DNA from: a bacterium
GTDB lineage: Bacteria > Zhuqueibacterota > Zhuqueibacteria > Residuimicrobiales > Krinioviventaceae
Length of the DNA stretch: 64,000 nt
NCBI GenBank assembly: GCA_963674595.2
Contig: CAXXFV010000004.1
Location: 160,001-224,000 of the forward strand
Direction of reading: 5' to 3'
Positions 12,576 to 21,370 of the stretch are shown piece after piece. The position numbers and the translations under genes are program-made. Each line of letters begins with the position of its first letter. The first letter of the stretch is position 1. The notes beneath the pieces were generated by a model, which saw only the letters and a list, made by a program, of their open reading frames with translations, was not told where the DNA came from and did no database searches.

Positions 12576-13982
12576 GTGCTTATTTTATGGCGCTACATAA
12601 TTAAAGAACATATAAAACCTTTTTTCTTTGCTATCAGTGTTATTACTCTTGTATTTCTACTGAATCTTGTTTTCCGTGAGTTAGGTCGTATTTTAAGCAG
12701 AGGTCTCAGTTTTCCGCTGGTTGCCGAATTCTTTTTTTTAAACCTCGCTTCCATTATTGCTCTATCGGTGCCCATGGCTGTGCTGGTTTCAACATTAATG
12801 GCATTTGGCCGACTTTCCGGGGACAGTGAAATTATAGCTATGAAAGCCAGCGGTGTCAGCATTATTCGGATCATGTTGCCTATTCTGTTTATGTCGTCCC
12901 TTCTGGCTATTTTTTTAATGTGGTTTAATAATCAAATACTACCGGACTTTAATCACCGTTCACGCCTTTTGGCAAGTGACATTGCCAGGAAAAGACCCAC
13001 TCTCAACCTTGAAGCAGGCGTCATCTATAGAGACATTCCTGACTATAATATTCTGGTACAGTCTATTAAAGAAACACAGGATACGGCTTTTGTAAAATCA
13101 ATCTTTATCGAAGAAAAAAGCGACCCAACCAAAAGTCTGATTATTTTTGCTGAACATGGAAAAATCTTTTCTCAGGAAACCAGAGGACTTATTTACCTGA
13201 TTTTGTATGATGGAGAAATGCATGAGATGGACCTTGAAAAGATGGACCATTATCGCAAACTGGAGTTTCCAAAACAAATTTTAACCATTAACATCCCGGA
13301 AATGATACTACACCGAAGTGATTCTGAATATCGTGGTGACCGGGAAAAAAGCGCACAACAAATGCACAAAGAAGTTCAGGAAAACAGAAAATCCATTAAC
13401 GAAAGAAAAGTAAATATAGCAAACGCTATAAACAGACATTTTGAAAAATATTTTCCTTTAAAAGCCCAAAATATTAAAACACAAAAAGTTGAGGAGCTTG
13501 AACCGGACACTTACCGGCAACTGTCCCTGCCTGTAAAAAACAATGAAAAACAATTAATCGGAAAAATCAGAAGAGACCATCAAAATCTTTTACAACAGAT
13601 TAAAAGTGAACGACATATTATATCACAACTGGAACGAGGCAATTCCGGTCTTTTGGTTGAAATACATAAAAAATATTCAATCCCAATTGCCTGTATTGTT
13701 TTTATTCTGATTGGTTCTCCATTGGGAATTATGGCAAGAAAAGGAAATATGGCTGTTGCCACCGGCATAAGTTTTGTCTTTTTTCTTATCTATTGGATAT
13801 CACTCATCGGAGGAGAAGACCTGGCAGATCGTCAAATTATCTCTCCTATTATTGCTATGTGGGGGGCCAATATTATTGTAGGCATAAGCGGACTATATCT
13901 TGTTATACACTCTATACGTGAAACCACATTTGTTAACTGGACAGCCTTGCAAAACTTTTTTACACGAAAGAAAAATAAATGA
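12576..13982 (+). CDS. lptF: LPS export ABC transporter permease LptF (YjgP/YjgQ family)
   Basis: PMAVLVSTLMAFGRLSGDSEIIAMKASG and EIHKKYSIP..C..F.LIG.PLG motifs; 3+3 TM layout. Confidence 0.9.
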   Translation: MLILWRYIIKEHIKPFFFAISVITLVFLLNLVFRELGRILSRGLSFPLVAEFFFLNLASIIALSVPMAVLVSTLMAFGRLSGDSEIIAMKASGVSIIRIMLPILFMSSLLAIFLMWFNNQILPDFNHRSRLLASDIARKRPTLNLEAGVIYRDIPDYNILVQSIKETQDTAFVKSIFIEEKSDPTKSLIIFAEHGKIFSQETRGLIYLILYDGEMHEMDLEKMDHYRKLEFPKQILTINIPEMILHRSDSEYRGDREKSAQQMHKEVQENRKSINERKVNIANAINRHFEKYFPLKAQNIKTQKVEELEPDTYRQLSLPVKNNEKQLIGKIRRDHQNLLQQIKSERHIISQLERGNSGLLVEIHKKYSIPIACIVFILIGSPLGIMARKGNMAVATGISFVFFLIYWISLIGGEDLADRQIISPIIAMWGANIIVGISGLYLVIHSIRETTFVNWTALQNFFTRKKNK

Positions 13983-15055
13983 CCCTGCTTGATCGCTATA
14001 TATCAAAACGCTTTTTACAGGTTTTGTTTTTTTCTCTGTTTGCATTTTTAACTGTATTTGTGGTCGTTAATATGATTGAAAAGATGGATGACTTTTTAAA
14101 TCAGAACGTCCCCAAATTTGTTATTATGCAATTTTATCTCAGCTCACTTCCATATTTTGTTGTGCTTTGTTTACCAATTTCAATGCTGTTGGCAAGTTTA
14201 TTTAGCGTCGGCAACATGACAAGACAAAATGAAATAATGGCCATGAAAGCATCCGGAATTTCTCTTTACCGAATCTTTTTGCCGCTATATTTTATCGGAT
14301 TTCTGGTCAGCATCGGGGCATTTTATTTTGGAGAATATGTCGTTCCTTATGCCAGTGAAAAAAGGGAATATATTAAAGATGAGTATATGGAAAAACATCG
14401 TGAAAGCTGGCGAAAATCCATCAAAGACGTTTATGCGCGCGATAATATGGACCGTTTGATAAATATTCGCTCTTATAACACAGCCAGAAATGTCGGCAGA
14501 ATCGTCAGCGTTCGAAAATTTGAAGGGGATGAACTTGTTAAAAGGATTGATGCCAAAACCATTACCTGGAAAGACAGTTCCTGGATTCTTCATGACGGCT
14601 ACCAAAGATCTTTCCCGGAAAGCCCTGAAAATACCGGTCCATTCCGGGAAATGCATCTGCAAAATTGCAATTTAACCCCAAAAGACTTTGCTAAAAACCT
14701 GAAACTTCCTGAAGAAATGTCATCAGTAGAACTTGGGGAGTTTATTAAAGAAGTCGAAAGAAACGGCAGTAATCCGGAAAAATGGCTGGTAGATTATTAT
14801 TTAAAATTTTCTTTTCCCCTGGCAAACCTGATCATAGTCCTTTTTGGTGCACCTTTTTCATCTCAAACCCGCCGTGGCAGTGCCGCAACCGGTTTTGGTA
14901 TAAGTTTACTTGTCTGCTTTGTGTATTTTGGTATTGTAAAAACATCCCAAGCTGTTGGTCACAACGGCTATTTGCCGCCGCTTATTGCTGCCTGGCTGGC
15001 AAATATCGTATTTCTGGTCGGGGGTGTTTTTGTAACTTTTAAAGCACCCAAATAA
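13979..15055 (+). CDS. lptG: LPS export ABC transporter permease LptG
   Basis: LLDRYI, LPISMLLASL, NEIMAMKASGISLYRI and AAWLANI motifs; ATGA overlap with lptF. Confidence 0.9.
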   Translation: MTLLDRYISKRFLQVLFFSLFAFLTVFVVVNMIEKMDDFLNQNVPKFVIMQFYLSSLPYFVVLCLPISMLLASLFSVGNMTRQNEIMAMKASGISLYRIFLPLYFIGFLVSIGAFYFGEYVVPYASEKREYIKDEYMEKHRESWRKSIKDVYARDNMDRLINIRSYNTARNVGRIVSVRKFEGDELVKRIDAKTITWKDSSWILHDGYQRSFPESPENTGPFREMHLQNCNLTPKDFAKNLKLPEEMSSVELGEFIKEVERNGSNPEKWLVDYYLKFSFPLANLIIVLFGAPFSSQTRRGSAATGFGISLLVCFVYFGIVKTSQAVGHNGYLPPLIAAWLANIVFLVGGVFVTFKAPK

Positions 15056-15059
15056 GTAG

Positions 15060-16055
15060 TTAACTTCCACTATTTGTTAAAGTATATAACAATTTTTCAA
15101 CTTTTTTGGCAATTTCAGACGAATCTTGAGACACATCAACCGGCAGTTTTTCACCATTTTGGTTCTGGAAATAGATGGCATTTAAAAAATCCTGTAATAC
15201 ATCTTTGGGCAGTTTTGCAGAATATATAAAAATCCGGTTTCGTCTGTTTGTGCGGCTCATTTCAATTTTTTTCGCTCCAATTGGTGTGAGTAGCGTAAAC
15301 TCGTTTTTGGGAGATATTTGCTTCTTTTCTAAAAAACGTTTATCAACAAGTTTATTTAGGACAATATCAAGTTCAGATCTTGTCATTCCGCCAGTGGTAT
15401 CAAATTGTGCAAAAATGTCCAGGTCTGAAACCTCACCCTTTTCATAGATAACACTCATGGCTTGCATCTCTTTCTCATCAGGGAAAAAATCAAGTTCCGG
15501 ATTCGTATTTTTGGGTAATATCTTTTCTTTTACAGCCTTTAAGCCTTTAAATAAAAGATAAGGTACGTCAACAGTTTGATCATGTCCGGTTTGCTGTTTT
15601 TTAATATTTTGTTCAATTTGGTCATTAATTAAGGCAGGGTTCGGCGCCTTATTGCCGGAATTGGTTAATAAATCAGCATTAAATCGATTGGATGTTTTTA
15701 CCGTGTCCTTAAAATTTTGAAAATGAAATTGAGGCTGCAAGGCAAACAACCGCTCCCGAACGGATTGTTTTACAGTATCCTGAGCCGCAACCTTTTCAGG
15801 CCTTAAAACCGGCTCAATAAATGATTCTTTTTCCAGGTCCTTTATAACCGGTTCAGTCGGTTGCTTAAATACAGAACGTGGTGCCGGCGGCGTAACAAGG
15901 GGTTTTTCAATAATGGCAGGTGGTTCATTCATGAGTGAAATATCAAACTTTAAATATTTTATCTTTTTTTCAGGTACATTTATACGGCCAAGCAATAATA
16001 CAATTAAAACATGAAAAAGCAGTGAACAAACAACAGCAATATGGAAAGGTTTCAT
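15060..16055 (-). CDS. Hypothetical membrane-anchored protein: TonB-like anchor, Pro-rich linker and putative BlaI/MecI-like winged-helix domain
   Basis: N-terminal TM with SxxxH (SLLFH); PPAIIEKPLVTPPAP linker; aa ~190-292 resemble the penicillinase-repressor wHTH (by eye). Confidence 0.6.
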   Translation of the reverse strand: MKPFHIAVVCSLLFHVLIVLLLGRINVPEKKIKYLKFDISLMNEPPAIIEKPLVTPPAPRSVFKQPTEPVIKDLEKESFIEPVLRPEKVAAQDTVKQSVRERLFALQPQFHFQNFKDTVKTSNRFNADLLTNSGNKAPNPALINDQIEQNIKKQQTGHDQTVDVPYLLFKGLKAVKEKILPKNTNPELDFFPDEKEMQAMSVIYEKGEVSDLDIFAQFDTTGGMTRSELDIVLNKLVDKRFLEKKQISPKNEFTLLTPIGAKKIEMSRTNRRNRIFIYSAKLPKDVLQDFLNAIYFQNQNGEKLPVDVSQDSSEIAKKVEKLLYTLTNSGS

Positions 16056-16211
16056 AATTCAAATGTGCCCAACATGACCCGAAAAAAACATTTAATTATT
16101 AATACGTTTTTTACCCAAAACAGTTCCCTCGATTTCGATAAATAACTTGCTTTTTATTATGTTATAGACTAAGTTTTTAATCAATAAAAAATTGTTTTTA
16201 AAGGAATATTC

Positions 16212-16529
16212 ATGGACTCTTTTATTCTTGTATTCAGCACATTTAGTTCTGAAGAAGAAGCAAAAAAAATCAGCAATCAGGTTGTAAAAGCAAGGCTGGC
16301 CGCCTGTGCCAATATAGTACCTAAGGTACACTCTATATTTCACTGGAAAAACGAATTATCGCATGAAGATGAAGTTATAGTTTTAATGAAAACACAAAAA
16401 AAACATTTAAAAGAACTTGTACTATGGATACAATCGCACCATAGCTATGAACTTCCCGAAGTGATAGCGTTACCGATTATCGGCGGTTCAGAAGAGTATT
16501 TAGACTGGATTAAAGAAGAAACATCCTGA
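16212..16529 (+). CDS. cutA: Divalent-cation tolerance protein CutA
   Basis: LAACANI, SIFHW, HSYELPEVIALPI..GS.EYLDWI motifs. Confidence 0.95.
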   Translation: MDSFILVFSTFSSEEEAKKISNQVVKARLAACANIVPKVHSIFHWKNELSHEDEVIVLMKTQKKHLKELVLWIQSHHSYELPEVIALPIIGGSEEYLDWIKEETS

Positions 16530-16544
16530 CCCATAGGAAATATA

Positions 16545-17300
16545 TTGAAACTAACAATATTAGGTTCCGGTACCTGCGTGCCTGTAAAAAATCGTTCCTG
16601 CGCATCATATTACATACAATTTGAAAACCAACACCTGATTTTTGACATCGGTTGCGGAACGTTGCGGCGGATGGCAGAAGCCGGGGTTCCCTATTCTGAA
16701 ATCGATAGTGTGATGATTACCCATACTCACCCGGACCATGTGTCGGACCTTGCGCCGTTTATTATGGCACTTAATCATACACCCGGCCTGCACAGGACAA
16801 AACCGTTAAATCTTTATGGACCTGCCGGATTTACCGATTTTATCAACAACCTCAAAGAAACATTTGGGACAAGTTTGCTGGAACCCAAAACATTTCAACT
16901 GAACATTATTGAAATGGAAAACGAATCTATTCAGAACTCTGATTATAAACTGGCAGCCTTAAACCTTAAACACAGCCGGAATACAGTCGGATATCGTTTG
17001 GAACATAAACATAAAGTTTTCGTTTACTCTGGTGATACCGAACTCTGCGATAATATTATCAAACTGGCACAAAACGCCGATATGGCTTTGCTGGAATGCT
17101 CTGCACCGGACCATGAACCTTTACCGGGACATTTAACGATTTCACAAACTTTGGATATTGCAGAAAAAGCAGGCTGCAAAAAACTCATTTTAACCCATTT
17201 TTATCCGGCAATGGAAGAAATTCAATTAACCCGGGATTATGAAAAAAAATTCTCCGGTGACATAATAAAAGCGCAAGATTTTTTAATTACAAACGTTTAA
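16545..17300 (+). CDS. MBL-fold metallo-hydrolase, RNase Z/BN-like
   Basis: LTILGSGT, THTHPDH, YSGDT and LILTHFYP motifs. Confidence 0.85.
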   Translation: MKLTILGSGTCVPVKNRSCASYYIQFENQHLIFDIGCGTLRRMAEAGVPYSEIDSVMITHTHPDHVSDLAPFIMALNHTPGLHRTKPLNLYGPAGFTDFINNLKETFGTSLLEPKTFQLNIIEMENESIQNSDYKLAALNLKHSRNTVGYRLEHKHKVFVYSGDTELCDNIIKLAQNADMALLECSAPDHEPLPGHLTISQTLDIAEKAGCKKLILTHFYPAMEEIQLTRDYEKKFSGDIIKAQDFLITNV

Positions 17301-17320: not shown

Positions 17321-18283
17321 ATGCCCCTTTTCATTCAAAAACATTTTACAAAAATAGCAATTATTGTTTCTATTATCCTGCACTTATTGTTTTTCCTGAC
17401 ATACAGGTATTGGGCTAATATGTTTGGCCTTTTATCCATTCTTAAAAATCTGGAAGCAACAACTGAAGTTGAACCTATCGAGTTTGAACTTGTTGATCCG
17501 GCGCCTCCCCCAAAAAGAAGTAATGAGATTATAGAAACCCCGGATGAAGCAAAGATTGATGCCCCGTCCCCTAACGCTAAATATGCTTCCGACAAAAACA
17601 CACAAGCCCAGGACCTTTATGAAAATAAGGATTTACCGACAGGAGAATCTTATTCTAACGGAATTTCCAAATATCATCTGTTTGCCGGTGGAGGAATGCC
17701 GCAGGAAGTAAATCAATCCCAAAAACAGGAAAATGAAGGGACAGAGGGAGAGCAAAGCAGAAATCAGGAAAACAATAAGGGTGAATTTGCGCAAACACAG
17801 GAAGGAGATATCGATTTAGGATCTGTTCAGCGGCAATCGAGCAGAACATCCCGGTTTACCAAAGAACTGTTATCCGGTAAAGGCAATATCCAAAATCAAC
17901 ATACACAAGCGTTCAGCGACGATGCTGACTGGAAAAATATTGATACAAACGCCGATGTATTGGGCGGTATTTCTCTTAGCGCCTACGATTGGGATTTTGC
18001 ACCCTATATTCTATACCTTAAAAAGCGTATACGTCAACACCTTTATCCTCCTGCTGCATTTTATCGAATGGGAATGATAAGCGGCGAGGTGACAATAAAA
18101 TTTAGAATACACCCCGACGGTACATTATCCGATGTGGAAGTTGTTTCCACCAAAGGACACAAAGCGTTTGTGCCGCCAAGTGAAAATTCCATTATTGCAT
18201 CAAGCCCGTTTCGGCCGTTGCCTGACAGTTTCAAACACCCTTTTTTAGACATTACAAGTACCTTTATGTTTAACATATATTAG
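17321..18283 (+). CDS. tonB: Energy transducer TonB/TolA-type protein
   Basis: N-terminal TM with SIILH, low-complexity linker, C-terminal domain (YPP.A...G.V.I.FRI.PDG...SPF.PLP); directly upstream of exbB/exbD. Confidence 0.8.
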   Translation: MPLFIQKHFTKIAIIVSIILHLLFFLTYRYWANMFGLLSILKNLEATTEVEPIEFELVDPAPPPKRSNEIIETPDEAKIDAPSPNAKYASDKNTQAQDLYENKDLPTGESYSNGISKYHLFAGGGMPQEVNQSQKQENEGTEGEQSRNQENNKGEFAQTQEGDIDLGSVQRQSSRTSRFTKELLSGKGNIQNQHTQAFSDDADWKNIDTNADVLGGISLSAYDWDFAPYILYLKKRIRQHLYPPAAFYRMGMISGEVTIKFRIHPDGTLSDVEVVSTKGHKAFVPPSENSIIASSPFRPLPDSFKHPFLDITSTFMFNIY

Positions 18284-18322: not shown

Positions 18323-18943
18323 ATGAATCAAGTTATTTCAACACTGGCTCGCGGCGGCATTGTAATGATCCCGCTGGTTCTCTGCTCTATCATCGGCCTT
18401 GCCGTTGTTATTGAAAAATTTTACAATTTGAGAAAAAATAAAATCCTGATACCGGAAATTATTTCGGTCATCGAATCCATTAAAAGCCTTCAGGACGTTA
18501 AACTGGCCACAACAATATGTGAACGCAATAACGGCCCGTTTCCAAATATTATCCTTTCAGGCCTGAGAAACCAGAACCTTGAAATGGAAGAAATTAAAGA
18601 GCTTATAAACGACGAAGGGCGTCAACAGGTGAGAACGCTCGAACGCGGTCTGCCGGTCCTTGAAACCGTAGCAAGCATAGCGCCCCTGCTTGGACTTTTG
18701 GGAACTGTTCTTGGTATGATCAAAGTGTTTACTGTTATCTCAACACAAGGTACCGGACAGGCAAGCCTTTTGGCCGGAGGTATTTCGGAAGCGCTTATCA
18801 CCACCGCAACCGGACTTGTTATCGGTATCCCTTTGCTGGTGGCTTTTAATTATTTTACAAACAAGGCAGAAAATTTTATCATGGATATTGAAAAATATTC
18901 AACAGACCTGCTGCAAAAAATTCGCTTAATTAATGAGAAATAA
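18323..18943 (+). CDS. exbB: MotA/TolQ/ExbB proton channel
   Basis: LETVASIAPLLGLLGTVLGMI and GISEALITTATGL motifs. Confidence 0.92.
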   Translation: MNQVISTLARGGIVMIPLVLCSIIGLAVVIEKFYNLRKNKILIPEIISVIESIKSLQDVKLATTICERNNGPFPNIILSGLRNQNLEMEEIKELINDEGRQQVRTLERGLPVLETVASIAPLLGLLGTVLGMIKVFTVISTQGTGQASLLAGGISEALITTATGLVIGIPLLVAFNYFTNKAENFIMDIEKYSTDLLQKIRLINEK

Positions 18944-18946
18944 TTT

Positions 18947-19353
18947 ATGCAGTTTAAAGAAAAAAAGAAAAAAGCACACGGTATTAATATTACATCATTA
19001 ATTGATGTTATGTTTATCCTTTTAATATTTTTATGGTTTCTTCGAGTTTTGTAGAACAACCGGGAATGAAACTTGAACTGCCCACCATAAAATCAAAACA
19101 AGTCGCACGTATTGAAAATTTGGTCATTTACATATCCAAAGACGATCAAGTTTATTTGCAAAACCAAAAAGTCGAACTTGAAACCCTTGGTGAAGCAATT
19201 AAAAAGCAAATCCCCAATCTTGAAGAAAAAACACTGGTATTAAAGGCAGATAAAGAAGCAGAGCATGGTATTGTCGTTCAGATTATGGATATTGCCAAAC
19301 AAAGTGGTTTGAAAAAAATCGTCATAGGAACCCGTATTGAAGGTGAAGGTTAA
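18947..19353 (+). CDS. exbD: ExbD/TolR biopolymer transport protein, with a one-base frameshift at the T-run 19028-19032
   Basis: ATG at 18947 gives MQFKEKKKKAHGINITSLIDVMFILLIF (ExbD TM with the conserved Asp). Adding one T joins it in frame to FMVSSSF...LKADK...MDIAK..G. The ORF track shows only the 19033-19353 part. Confidence 0.88.
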
Positions 19354-19477: not shown

Positions 19478-21370
19478 ATGGGAAAAATGGTTTTCAAAAA
19501 TCGATATATCATTTATTTATATCCGGCATTTACCTGCCGGCATTTTATTCGAATTTTTCTCATAACAGTATTTATTTTTCTGTTTAACATAAAAACCACA
19601 GGTGCACAACCGCATGTTCACTCACAGGACAGTTATCTCAACCGGCAGAATTACGGATACCTGCTTAAACAGAATAATAATATAAATATCTGGTGGTGCG
19701 ACGCTACCCAAAAAATCGGTAAACACCGACCGGTTCCTTATGAAAAAAGTAAAACAATATCCTGTTCCGCAGCAAAAAACGAATTCGAACCTGTTCAGTT
19801 GGTGGTTTATCCGGAAACCGACCTTGCCGGGCTAAAAATCAGGGCCGGCCGTTTAAAACACACATCCGGGTACAAACTGCCAATGGATGCTGTAAAAATT
19901 TATCGTGTAGAGTATGTGAATATTGAAAAACCGACTGATGAAATTGGTACGGTCGATGCCTGGCCTGATCCGTTACCGCCGGTTTTGCAGCCGGTATCGA
20001 TTCATAAAAATGAAAACCAGCCTTTCTGGATATTGATTCAAATTCCTGAAAAGGCCAAACCCGGAAATTATAACAGTACCATTTACCTGGAAACAGAAAC
20101 CTGGCAGGATTCGGTCCACCTTGATCTGCATGTTTGGGATTTTCAACTGCCCCACAAAACCCATCTGCAAACAGCCTTTGGTTTTAATCCCTGGCTTGTC
20201 AGAGACTATCATAATTTCCCGGACAACCGGGATTTTGAAAAAGTTATGGATAAATATTATCAAAACTTTGCCCGGCACCGCATTTCACCCTACGATCCCT
20301 TTACCTTTGGCTATTTTAAAGAACAATTTGACACCACAGCGTTAAAAGTTCATATAGATTTTGGAAAATTTGATGCCCTGGCAAACCACTTTTTCGATGA
20401 GCTGGGTTACAACAGTTTCCGGATGCGTTTAAAAGGCCTGGGAAGCGGAACATTTCATTCCCGCCGGAAAGGTAAAATAGCCGGATTTGAGCAGGGCACA
20501 CCGCAATATCAAAAATTGATGTTTGATTATCTGGCGCAAGTTGAGCAGCATTTGGATAAAAGAGGCTGGCTGGACGAAGCCTATATTTACTGGTTTGACG
20601 AACCAACAGAAAAAGATTATGACTTTGTCAAAGAAACCATGAATATGATCCATCAGGCGGCCCCCCGTCTGACGCGTATGCTGACCGAACAACCGGAACC
20701 GGAACTGTATGGCTCTGTGGACTTGTGGTGTCCTATAACAGCCCATTATGATCACGAAATTGCCGAACAACGCCGTGCCAAAGGAGAGCGCTTCTGGTGG
20801 TACATTTGTACCGGGCCAAAAGCGCCCTATTGCACCCTGTTCATCGACCACTATGCTGTTGAACTGAGAACATGGTTATGGCAAACATGGAAATATGGTA
20901 TTGAAGGGATTCTCATCTGGCAAACCAACTATTGGACCAGTCCGACGGCTTTTCCAAAACCGCAAAAACAAAACCCGTATCAGGACCCCATGAGTTATAG
21001 AACAGGTTATGGTATGAAATCCGGTGAAATCGGTTATTGGGGAAACGGTGACGGACGTTTTATCTACCCGCCGGAGTCGGTTTTCAGTTCATCAGAAAGA
21101 TGTTTTCAGGGACCTGTCAACTCGATTCGTTTTGAAATGCTGCGTGAAGGTATTGAAGACTGGGAATATTTCTGGATATTGCGTGATCTGATACAAAAAA
21201 TCGAAAAGGAAAAACCGTCATTTCCTTATTTAAAACAGGCAAAAGAATTATTAAACGTCCCGGAAAGCGTTACGACATCATTGACGGAATTTTCTCTTTC
21301 CCCGGAACCCATTTACACACATCGTCAAAAAATAGCTGAAATGATCGAATTTTTGAACAGAGGTCTTTAA
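19478..21370 (+). CDS. DUF4091 / glycoside hydrolase family 123-like protein
   Basis: AAKNEFEPVQLV, WPDPL, YWFDEP, WWYIC, GDGRFIYP and SIRFEMLREGIED motifs; signal peptide ending TTGA|Q. Confidence 0.8.
   Translation: MGKMVFKNRYIIYLYPAFTCRHFIRIFLITVFIFLFNIKTTGAQPHVHSQDSYLNRQNYGYLLKQNNNINIWWCDATQKIGKHRPVPYEKSKTISCSAAKNEFEPVQLVVYPETDLAGLKIRAGRLKHTSGYKLPMDAVKIYRVEYVNIEKPTDEIGTVDAWPDPLPPVLQPVSIHKNENQPFWILIQIPEKAKPGNYNSTIYLETETWQDSVHLDLHVWDFQLPHKTHLQTAFGFNPWLVRDYHNFPDNRDFEKVMDKYYQNFARHRISPYDPFTFGYFKEQFDTTALKVHIDFGKFDALANHFFDELGYNSFRMRLKGLGSGTFHSRRKGKIAGFEQGTPQYQKLMFDYLAQVEQHLDKRGWLDEAYIYWFDEPTEKDYDFVKETMNMIHQAAPRLTRMLTEQPEPELYGSVDLWCPITAHYDHEIAEQRRAKGERFWWYICTGPKAPYCTLFIDHYAVELRTWLWQTWKYGIEGILIWQTNYWTSPTAFPKPQKQNPYQDPMSYRTGYGMKSGEIGYWGNGDGRFIYPPESVFSSSERCFQGPVNSIRFEMLREGIEDWEYFWILRDLIQKIEKEKPSFPYLKQAKELLNVPESVTTSLTEFSLSPEPIYTHRQKIAEMIEFLNRGL

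Follow-up and report, generated by a model that had tools for sequence, protein, structure and literature searches.

A 64,000-nucleotide window of contig CAXXFV010000004.1, the whole stretch of bacterial DNA analysed here, contains a gene, designated X (P0001), whose product carries a TonB-type membrane anchor at one end and a winged helix of the BlaI/MecI type at the other. X is divergent from a gene cluster, cutA-MBL-tonB-exbB-exbD (MBL, metallo-beta-lactamase-fold hydrolase), in which cutA and the MBL gene come first. Our analysis documents the architecture of the protein, the homology of both of its ends to known modules, its conservation and its synteny, and from these we infer motor binding, force transduction and a partner on which force would act. 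We propose that X, which is conserved across one uncultured phylum, may represent a type of force transducer of the cell envelope that is new.

A TonB-type anchor joined to a BlaI/MecI-like head

As judged from sequence, the N-terminal module of X is TonB-like in three respects: an SxxxH motif in its membrane helix, a putative motor-box-like strand after it, and a disordered, Pro-rich linker. The family to which X belongs was defined as 189 cluster representatives found by exhaustive search at E ≤ 1e-3, of which 150 had their N-termini classed and 112 were aligned. In X itself, S11-LLF-H15 lies within a hydrophobic helix spanning residues 4-24, which the AlphaFold2 model also forms, and the neighbouring TonB has S17-IIL-H21; both motifs are as an initial annotation, made from the DNA alone, had read them. 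Of the 150 representatives, 89 have the S-x3-H arrangement, within a helix core that has no charged residues and in which Ser and His alone are polar. The second Ser of the SHLS motif is not conserved in the X family, and according to a cryo-electron microscopy preprint on the Ton and Tol motors it is likewise not conserved for TonB (bioRxiv 10.1101/2024.10.08.617233). In the solved motor complexes described in the same preprint, the Ser and His of the helix contact the first transmembrane helix (TM1) of ExbB or TolQ. Because Ser and His are kept in a family whose pairwise identity to X is only ~20-33% in the 112-sequence alignment, selection on them within the membrane is suggested. Aligned by hhalign with the family of the TonB neighbour, the X helix places S on S and H on H (probability 81%, E 1.2e-5), over just 25 hydrophobic columns whose composition may inflate the match. 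In one family of the phylum (loci L078-L080; genomes G086, G083 and G084) A-x3-H replaces S-x3-H; the His is kept, and the cutA-MBL-tonB-exbB-exbD cluster is near.

A pentad of alternating hydrophobic residues resembling a motor box follows the helix by at most 35 residues in 83 of the 89 anchored members, compared with 47.9 +/- 4.3 in shuffled sequences and, for windows placed further along these chains, 18-38 of 89; it keeps a fixed register at S+25/+27/+29. The motor box of TolA and TonB is described as a beta-strand located after the helix (PMC12204202), that of TolA having the sequence IDAVMVD (bioRxiv 10.1101/2024.10.08.617233). The AlphaFold2 model of the isolated X chain has no strand at the equivalent segment, residues 33-42. 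When X residues 22-64 were modelled together with two copies of the ExbD periplasmic domain, in a run without controls, the scores were 0.32, 0.28 and 0.29 against a mark of 0.32, a result that bears on binding in neither direction. The Pro-rich spacer noted by the initial annotation has the predicted local distance difference test (pLDDT) values of a disordered chain, 44-68 over about residues 25-140 and 73-84 thereafter, with two helices (146-156 and 164-179) preceding the head; Pro makes up 11% of the 110 residues after the helix, as a mean over the 89 anchored members.

The fold of the head was assigned from a full-length AlphaFold2 model built on the 112-sequence alignment, with a mean pLDDT of 77.6 and values above 90 over about residues 190-330. 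A search of 48,161 solved chains returned MecI first (1okr_A; Z 11.1, root-mean-square deviation 1.9 Å over 87 residues, model residues 187-299) and the Mycobacterium tuberculosis BlaI homologue Rv1846c second (2g9w; Z 10.4), and Foldseek matched the head to BlaI and MecI at probability 1.00. The profile of the 112 members matches the solved DNA-binding domains of CopR (2k4b, E 2.7e-5) and BlaI (1p6r, E 1.3e-4). Matches of X to curated models fall below their cut-offs: Pfam Penicillinase_R (PF03965) scores 18.8 bits over residues 194-251 (E 0.0022; cut-off 22.6), and NCBIfam CopY_TcrY scores 16.9 bits (cut-off 121.95). Penicillinase_R matches 65 of the 112 family members at E ≤ 0.01, the best at 1.5e-9, and a signal-peptide paralogue of X in the same genome (contig 15, C15:308408-308872) passes the cut-off with 26.5 bits. 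Homology of the X head to BlaI/MecI/CopY at the superfamily level is thus supported by profile and fold comparison. The alignment with MecI reaches residue 299 of the model, and the two C-terminal helices (284-299 and 312-328) have pLDDT values of 89-96.

Neither TonB_C nor TonB_2 matches X in Pfam or NCBIfam, no vWA (von Willebrand factor A) match was found in Pfam, and the ESM Atlas gave no usable match for full-length X or for residues 140-331. The initial annotation had recognised a BlaI/MecI/CopY pattern by eye in place of a TonB C-terminal domain, and had expected an AlphaFold model searched with Foldseek to return a winged helix, as it does. The three points on which it had staked its reading also came out in its favour: the fold is a winged helix, Ser and His are conserved, and homologues share the architecture.

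Membrane side, distribution and genomic setting

The side of the membrane on which the head resides is the central question. In 39 of the 150 representatives a signal-peptide-like N-terminus stands in place of the SxxxH helix, and in 26 of these 39 the hydrophobic stretch is followed by a small residue and then Gln, a motif that may correspond to the 'Q-rule' of Bacteroidota signal peptidase I substrates. A domain tree built from the C-terminal 175 residues (129 rows) unites 28 of the signal-peptide forms in a single clade. Further ones branch from within the anchored forms, such as P0009, which is sister to P0008 with a Shimodaira-Hasegawa-like approximate likelihood ratio (SH-aLRT) of 99, P0040, and the group of P0060. 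On this tree the type of anchor switches 10 times, and at least 5 of the changes are forced by well-supported branches; a few of the 'B' labels that fall within the anchored clade narrowly miss the motif rule, as judged from the N-termini (P0028 with SMALH, P0050 with S-x4-H, P0076 with H to Q, P0140 with S to A).

Replacement of a signal anchor by a signal peptide keeps the compartment of the domain that follows, and since the invariant head residues are common to anchored and signal-peptide forms, the head of X is placed in the periplasm with high, if not full, confidence. This agrees with the side that the initial annotation had assigned to the C-terminus, as do the alignment of the anchor with that of TonB and the charges flanking the helix across the family. 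When the observed uncharged core is used as the limits of the helix, mean net charge is +2.66 on the N-terminal side and +0.73 on the C-terminal side, and the N-terminal flank is the more positive in 66 of the 89 anchored members. Charge also supplies the points that weigh against this placement. A cruder count of Lys and Arg, with the helix taken as S-8 to S+13, gives the opposite result (1.01 N-terminal, 2.35 C-terminal); X itself, at +2 and +3, is among 8 of the 89 members that run contrary to the family trend; and the expected bias is clearer in the TonB neighbours (1.77 versus 0.82).

A word-indexed homologue search returned X itself only when begun from the single sequence, and X with one other protein when begun from a profile. 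By profile search within the phylum, KSB1/Zhuqueibacterota, the family was detected in 154 of 167 genomes, a tally in which G158 and G162, genomes as yet unpublished, count as matches (152 of 165 without them). Among genomes with completeness of 90% or more and contamination of 5% or less it occurs in 101 of 105, so X probably marks a basic feature of the phylum's cell envelope. A scan of the genomes of 185,579 species with narrow patterns found 19 loci, and all those that could be cross-matched belong to this phylum.

The tonB, exbB and exbD genes that the initial annotation had placed beside X are borne out by Pfam (Table 1), and the survey of homologue neighbourhoods that it had called for finds the association repeated. 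Among relatives of the same order, cutA and/or tonB-exbB-exbD diverge from X at 29 of 32 loci. At 40 further loci across the phylum, the cluster lies within 4 kb of 17 of 20 helix-anchored forms (14 of 17 with SxxxH and all 3 with AxxxH) but of only 4 of 20 that have a signal peptide. The genes beside the remaining signal-peptide forms differ from locus to locus (OsmC, HAD hydrolase, MacB/FtsX, HlyD, NAD-epimerase, aminotransferase) and offer no consistent functional lead. At two loci of the same order, L113 (G021:C162) and L114 (G024:C224), an NAD-dependent epimerase gene occupies the expected position of X. On the other flank of X, sprA and lptFG lie just downstream; the order sprA-lptFG-X is kept in the window's own family and not across the order.

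Table 1. Gene X, the parts of its product (residue numbers in brackets) and its neighbours in the window
Feature	Position	Strand	Basis or remark
Gene X (P0001), 331 residues, ATG start	15060..16055	-	TonB-type anchor and BlaI-like head
X transmembrane helix (4-24), S11 and H15, L22 at H+7	15984..16046	-	helix in AlphaFold2 model
X motor-box-like alternating hydrophobic strand (33-42, KYLKFDISLM)	15930..15959	-	sequence pattern
X disordered Pro-rich linker (43-186)	15498..15929	-	AlphaFold2 pLDDT, Pro content
X BlaI/MecI-like winged helix-turn-helix (187-283)	15207..15497	-	pLDDT > 90, fold and profile matches
X wing insertion (247-275), extra beta-hairpin and short helix	15231..15317	-	gap relative to BlaI, AlphaFold2 model
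X two C-terminal helices (284-331), where BlaI/MecI dimerise	15063..15206	-	AlphaFold2 model
X-cutA divergent intergenic region	16056..16211	.	
cutA	16212..16529	+	Pfam CutA1, E 5e-36
MBL-fold hydrolase	16545..17300	+	Pfam Lactamase_B_2, E 1.7e-20
TonB-family transducer (S17, H21; motor box PIEFELV; TonB_C head)	17321..18283	+	Pfam TonB_C, 28.5 bits
exbB, ExbB/TolQ-type stator subunit	18323..18943	+	Pfam MotA_ExbB, 121 bits, E 3.3e-35
exbD, ExbD/TolR-type stator subunit, frameshifted	18947..19353	+	Pfam ExbD, 73 bits
GH123 glycosidase	19478..21370	+	Pfam
lptF-lptG, convergent with X	12576..15055	+	
Type IX secretion system translocon SprA/Sov, 2062 residues	6098..12286	-	TIGR04189, E 2.6e-265

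The TonB encoded in the divergent cluster matches, by profile, the solved TonB C-terminal domains 5lw8 and 6sly, and SxxxH is kept in 22 of 26 orthologues. By alignment, the neighbouring ExbB retains the Ser of TM1 (S22) and the Pro of the third transmembrane helix (TM3) that belong to the TonB-contacting network; in Escherichia coli ExbB, this TM1 Ser/TM3 Pro network is reported to contact Ser16 and His20 of TonB, and a Trp of TM1 to touch His20 (bioRxiv 10.1101/2024.10.08.617233). In the window, the reading frame of exbD shifts by one base within five consecutive T (19028-19032), so that its N-terminal helix and its periplasmic domain are in different frames. Contigs from two other public sequencing runs (X3 and X7), more than 99% identical over this stretch, have a sixth T that restores the frame, and contigs from the two remaining runs stop exactly at the T run. 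Since the frame is intact in the six-T contigs, the break is probably an assembly or strain-level homopolymer difference, and the motor is probably not dead.

In the same genome, ExbB-type genes number six and TonB_C matches twelve. Only four of its proteins pass a strict filter for SxxxH anchors: X, the TonB neighbour, and two transducers encoded next to other motors. Further Ton-like clusters with SxxxH transducers are located at G000:C4:396743-399588 (L061) and G000:C14:47110-48946 (L062); in one of them two exbD genes come after exbB, along with the gene for a 350-residue transducer whose TonB_C match is weak, and neither tolB nor pal lies beside either. Elsewhere in the genome (G000:C16:438354-440085, L103), a canonical BlaI-family gene of 133 residues adjoins a 555-residue M56 (BlaR1-like) peptidase that ends in a TonB_C domain, and a second BlaI and M56 pair is present at G000:C14:92076-93377. 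M56-TonB pairs are common in Bacteroidota. Given X and the BlaI/M56-TonB_C pair in one genome, TonB and BlaI modules have been combined in more than one way in this lineage.

Possible mode of action

The reading with the best support, to which we give about an even chance, is that X is a TonB/TolA-type transducer, coupled to ExbB and ExbD, with a repurposed winged-helix head. In such a scheme the N-terminal helix, with S11 and H15, would dock at the rim of the ExbB5-ExbD2 proton motor whose genes lie on the far side of the divergent promoter, and residues 33-42 would form a beta-strand touching the ExbD dimer in the periplasm, the role proposed for the motor box in TonB and TolA. The disordered Pro-rich linker of ~145 residues would span the periplasm, and the BlaI/MecI-derived head, no longer binding DNA, would hold an envelope partner through its enlarged wing, allowing the motor to act on that partner. 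The broader proposal is more tentative, and we put it somewhat short of an even chance: that X stands for a further class of periplasmic force transducer driven by the proton motive force, in which an exported BlaI/MecI fold has passed from binding DNA to binding an envelope partner, the ExbB-ExbD motor is shared with a conventional TonB, and the protein serves as a core envelope component throughout the phylum.

Where the conserved residues of the head lie bears on how it might engage such a partner. In the BlaI alignment, X residues 189-243 correspond to BlaI 3-59 and X 273-285 to BlaI 64-76; five BlaI residues lie between these blocks and face X 243-273, which indicates an insertion of about 25 residues in the wing (~25-30 by our estimates). 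A basic insertion of ~25 residues is what the initial annotation had described; its net charge in X is +5 by count from the translation. AlphaFold2 models it as a hairpin (strands 252-257 and 260-265) followed by a short helix (268-272). Six positions are invariant in the 112-sequence alignment (P192, S248, P249, E265, N270 and N273) and five more are conserved in at least 90% of the sequences (Y215, T225, L233, S267 and Y278, the last just past the insertion on the final wing strand), and most of these residues lie in or beside the insertion (SP.NEF...EMS..NRRNR.Y.Y). The helix equivalent to the recognition helix, alpha-3, has a net charge of zero or below in 93% of the 112 members (mean -1.56), and its consensus at the start is T-A-E-D, where BlaI has S-P-K-T. 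Because alpha-3 is acidic or neutral and the invariant residues cluster in the wing, X seems to have abandoned the surface with which such domains usually read DNA, and its working site seems to be the enlarged wing. This argues against binding of DNA by the usual recognition helix, a form of the nucleic-acid binding that the initial annotation had entertained.

Several observations weigh against a motor-driven transducer, in addition to the possible compositional inflation of the helix alignment. Repeated replacement of the anchor by a signal peptide indicates a head that can function without a motor, unlike what TonB or TolA heads would lead one to expect. The cluster is also close to four of the signal-peptide forms, so the synteny is independent of the anchor and may be partly inherited. 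G021 and G024, two genomes of genus g14 (97% and 94% complete), keep cutA-tonB-exbB-exbD and have no detectable X, and therefore that cluster does not need X. In the neighbouring ExbB, L26 replaces the TM1 Trp, which is present in the aligned Serratia ExbB.

Many of these observations would be accommodated if the head bound or scaffolded something in the periplasm independently of a motor, be it cell wall, lipid or glycan, or if it were an accessory to the neighbouring Ton system. The helix would then transmit no force: it would act as a tether, perhaps beside the Ton complex, or be a competitor of TonB at the motor. Since the anchor has been replaced by a signal peptide several times, and one clade of 28 representatives has signal peptides only, the head can work without a motor. 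The frequency of the signal-peptide forms and their repeated derivation from anchored ones, the presence of both an anchored copy and a signal-peptide paralogue in the same genome, the retention of the same invariant residues in the two forms, the signal-peptide forms that remain beside the cutA-MBL-tonB-exbB-exbD cluster, and the g14 genomes that retain a Ton cluster and lack X all fit this alternative. The invariant polar residues of the wing (E, S, N, R, N, R, Y) would also suit a small polar or anionic ligand. However, a mere tether should not keep Ser and His, together with a strand in fixed register 25-29 residues after the Ser, at such low family identity, and anchored forms adjoin the motor genes far more often than signal-peptide forms do. 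We consider a motor-independent head the main rival reading, less likely than not.

It is also conceivable, and close to the main inference of the initial annotation, that the wing itself, being basic, is a periplasmic binding site for nucleic acid or some other polyanion, with or without a motor, for example in DNA uptake or in the handling of extracellular DNA or polyphosphate. Winged helices often touch the DNA backbone with the wing, the N-R-R-N-R motif of the X wing is near-invariant, and the net charge of the insertion is positive on average across the family (mean +1.7; at least +2 in 55% of the 112 members). Against this, the recognition helix is acidic, the winged helix as a whole has a mean net charge of only +0.8 with a range of -5 to +7, and no competence or nuclease genes are conserved beside either anchored or signal-peptide forms at the loci surveyed. 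We judge polyanion binding improbable.

The initial annotation had raised the alternative of a membrane-tethered regulator released by proteolysis, and a BlaI-type repressor of the divergent cutA-tonB-exbBD operon, oriented N-out/C-in and released or inactivated by proteolysis, would accord with a common layout in which a regulator diverges from its target, with the conserved X-cutA pairing, with the flank charges of X taken alone (compatible with a cytoplasmic C-terminus), and with genuine BlaI homology in a genome that has canonical BlaI and M56 sensor-protease pairs elsewhere, but it is very improbable: forms in which a cleavable signal peptide precedes the same domain are nested among the anchored ones, nearly all members have an alpha-3 that is acidic or neutral, family net charge favours a cytoplasmic N-terminus, Pfam finds no M56 gene among the scanned X neighbours (the two in the genome are on other contigs beside canonical BlaI), inverted-repeat and promoter scans of the X-cutA intergenic DNA gave AT-rich low-complexity matches only, with no palindromic BlaI-type operator evident, and the Pro-rich linker would have no obvious role.

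If X is indeed a transducer coupled to ExbB and ExbD, the set of tasks powered across the periplasm by 5:2 proton motors would be wider than the established ones, a question reopened by a 2025 proposal concerning vWA-headed proteins. A BlaI/MecI-type 'transcription factor' fold would be at work outside the cytoplasm, and the automatic annotation of such proteins as repressors, to which Penicillinase_R matches in more than half of the aligned members invite, would be wrong. The natural pairs of anchored and signal-peptide forms offer a ready comparison for what coupling to a motor adds to the function of the head.

Relation to known systems

X resembles TonB and TolA in its Ser-x3-His helix, its putative motor-box-like strand, its Pro-rich or disordered linker suited to spanning the periplasm, its globular head, and the position of its gene beside exbB-exbD. 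It differs in that the head is a BlaI/MecI winged helix and not a TonB_C or TolA fold, in that its family includes anchor-less signal-peptide forms, and in that coupling to the motor is deduced and no TonB-box-type partner is known for it. Conceptually closest to X are the vWA-headed transducers that Williams-Jones et al. put forward in 2025, for which an SHLS helix, a predicted motor box, a linker of ~100 residues and synteny with tolQ/tolR-like genes are described, with hosts in Proteobacteria, the PVC group, Bacteroidetes and Rhodothermaeota (PMC12204202). X shares with these proteins the design logic of a head other than TonB_C; in contrast to them, its head is a winged helix and its gene diverges from a cluster that already has a TonB of its own. 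The main text of that paper contains none of the terms 'winged', 'Penicillinase' or 'KSB1', and 'BlaI' occurs there only as an author surname in the references. A TonB-type anchor joined to a winged helix is not described in the literature searched, subscription-only papers being outside its scope, in keeping with the statement of the initial annotation that the architecture was known from no described system.

With BlaI, MecI and CopY, X shares a homologous winged helix followed by helices at the position of the BlaI dimerisation region. Those proteins, among them repressors of antibiotic resistance, are soluble and cytoplasmic; their recognition helix is basic and an M56 sensor-protease is encoded beside them. 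None of this applies to X. The X domain instead follows a long linker that is itself preceded by an anchor or a signal peptide, and its wing contains an insertion of ~25-30 residues that harbours invariant positions. The BlaI and M56-TonB_C pair encoded in the same genome likewise brings BlaI- and TonB-family modules together, in a different arrangement: there the BlaI protein is a free, cytoplasmic polypeptide of 133 residues and the TonB part is C-terminal on the protease, whereas in X the TonB-type anchor is N-terminal and BlaI supplies the head.

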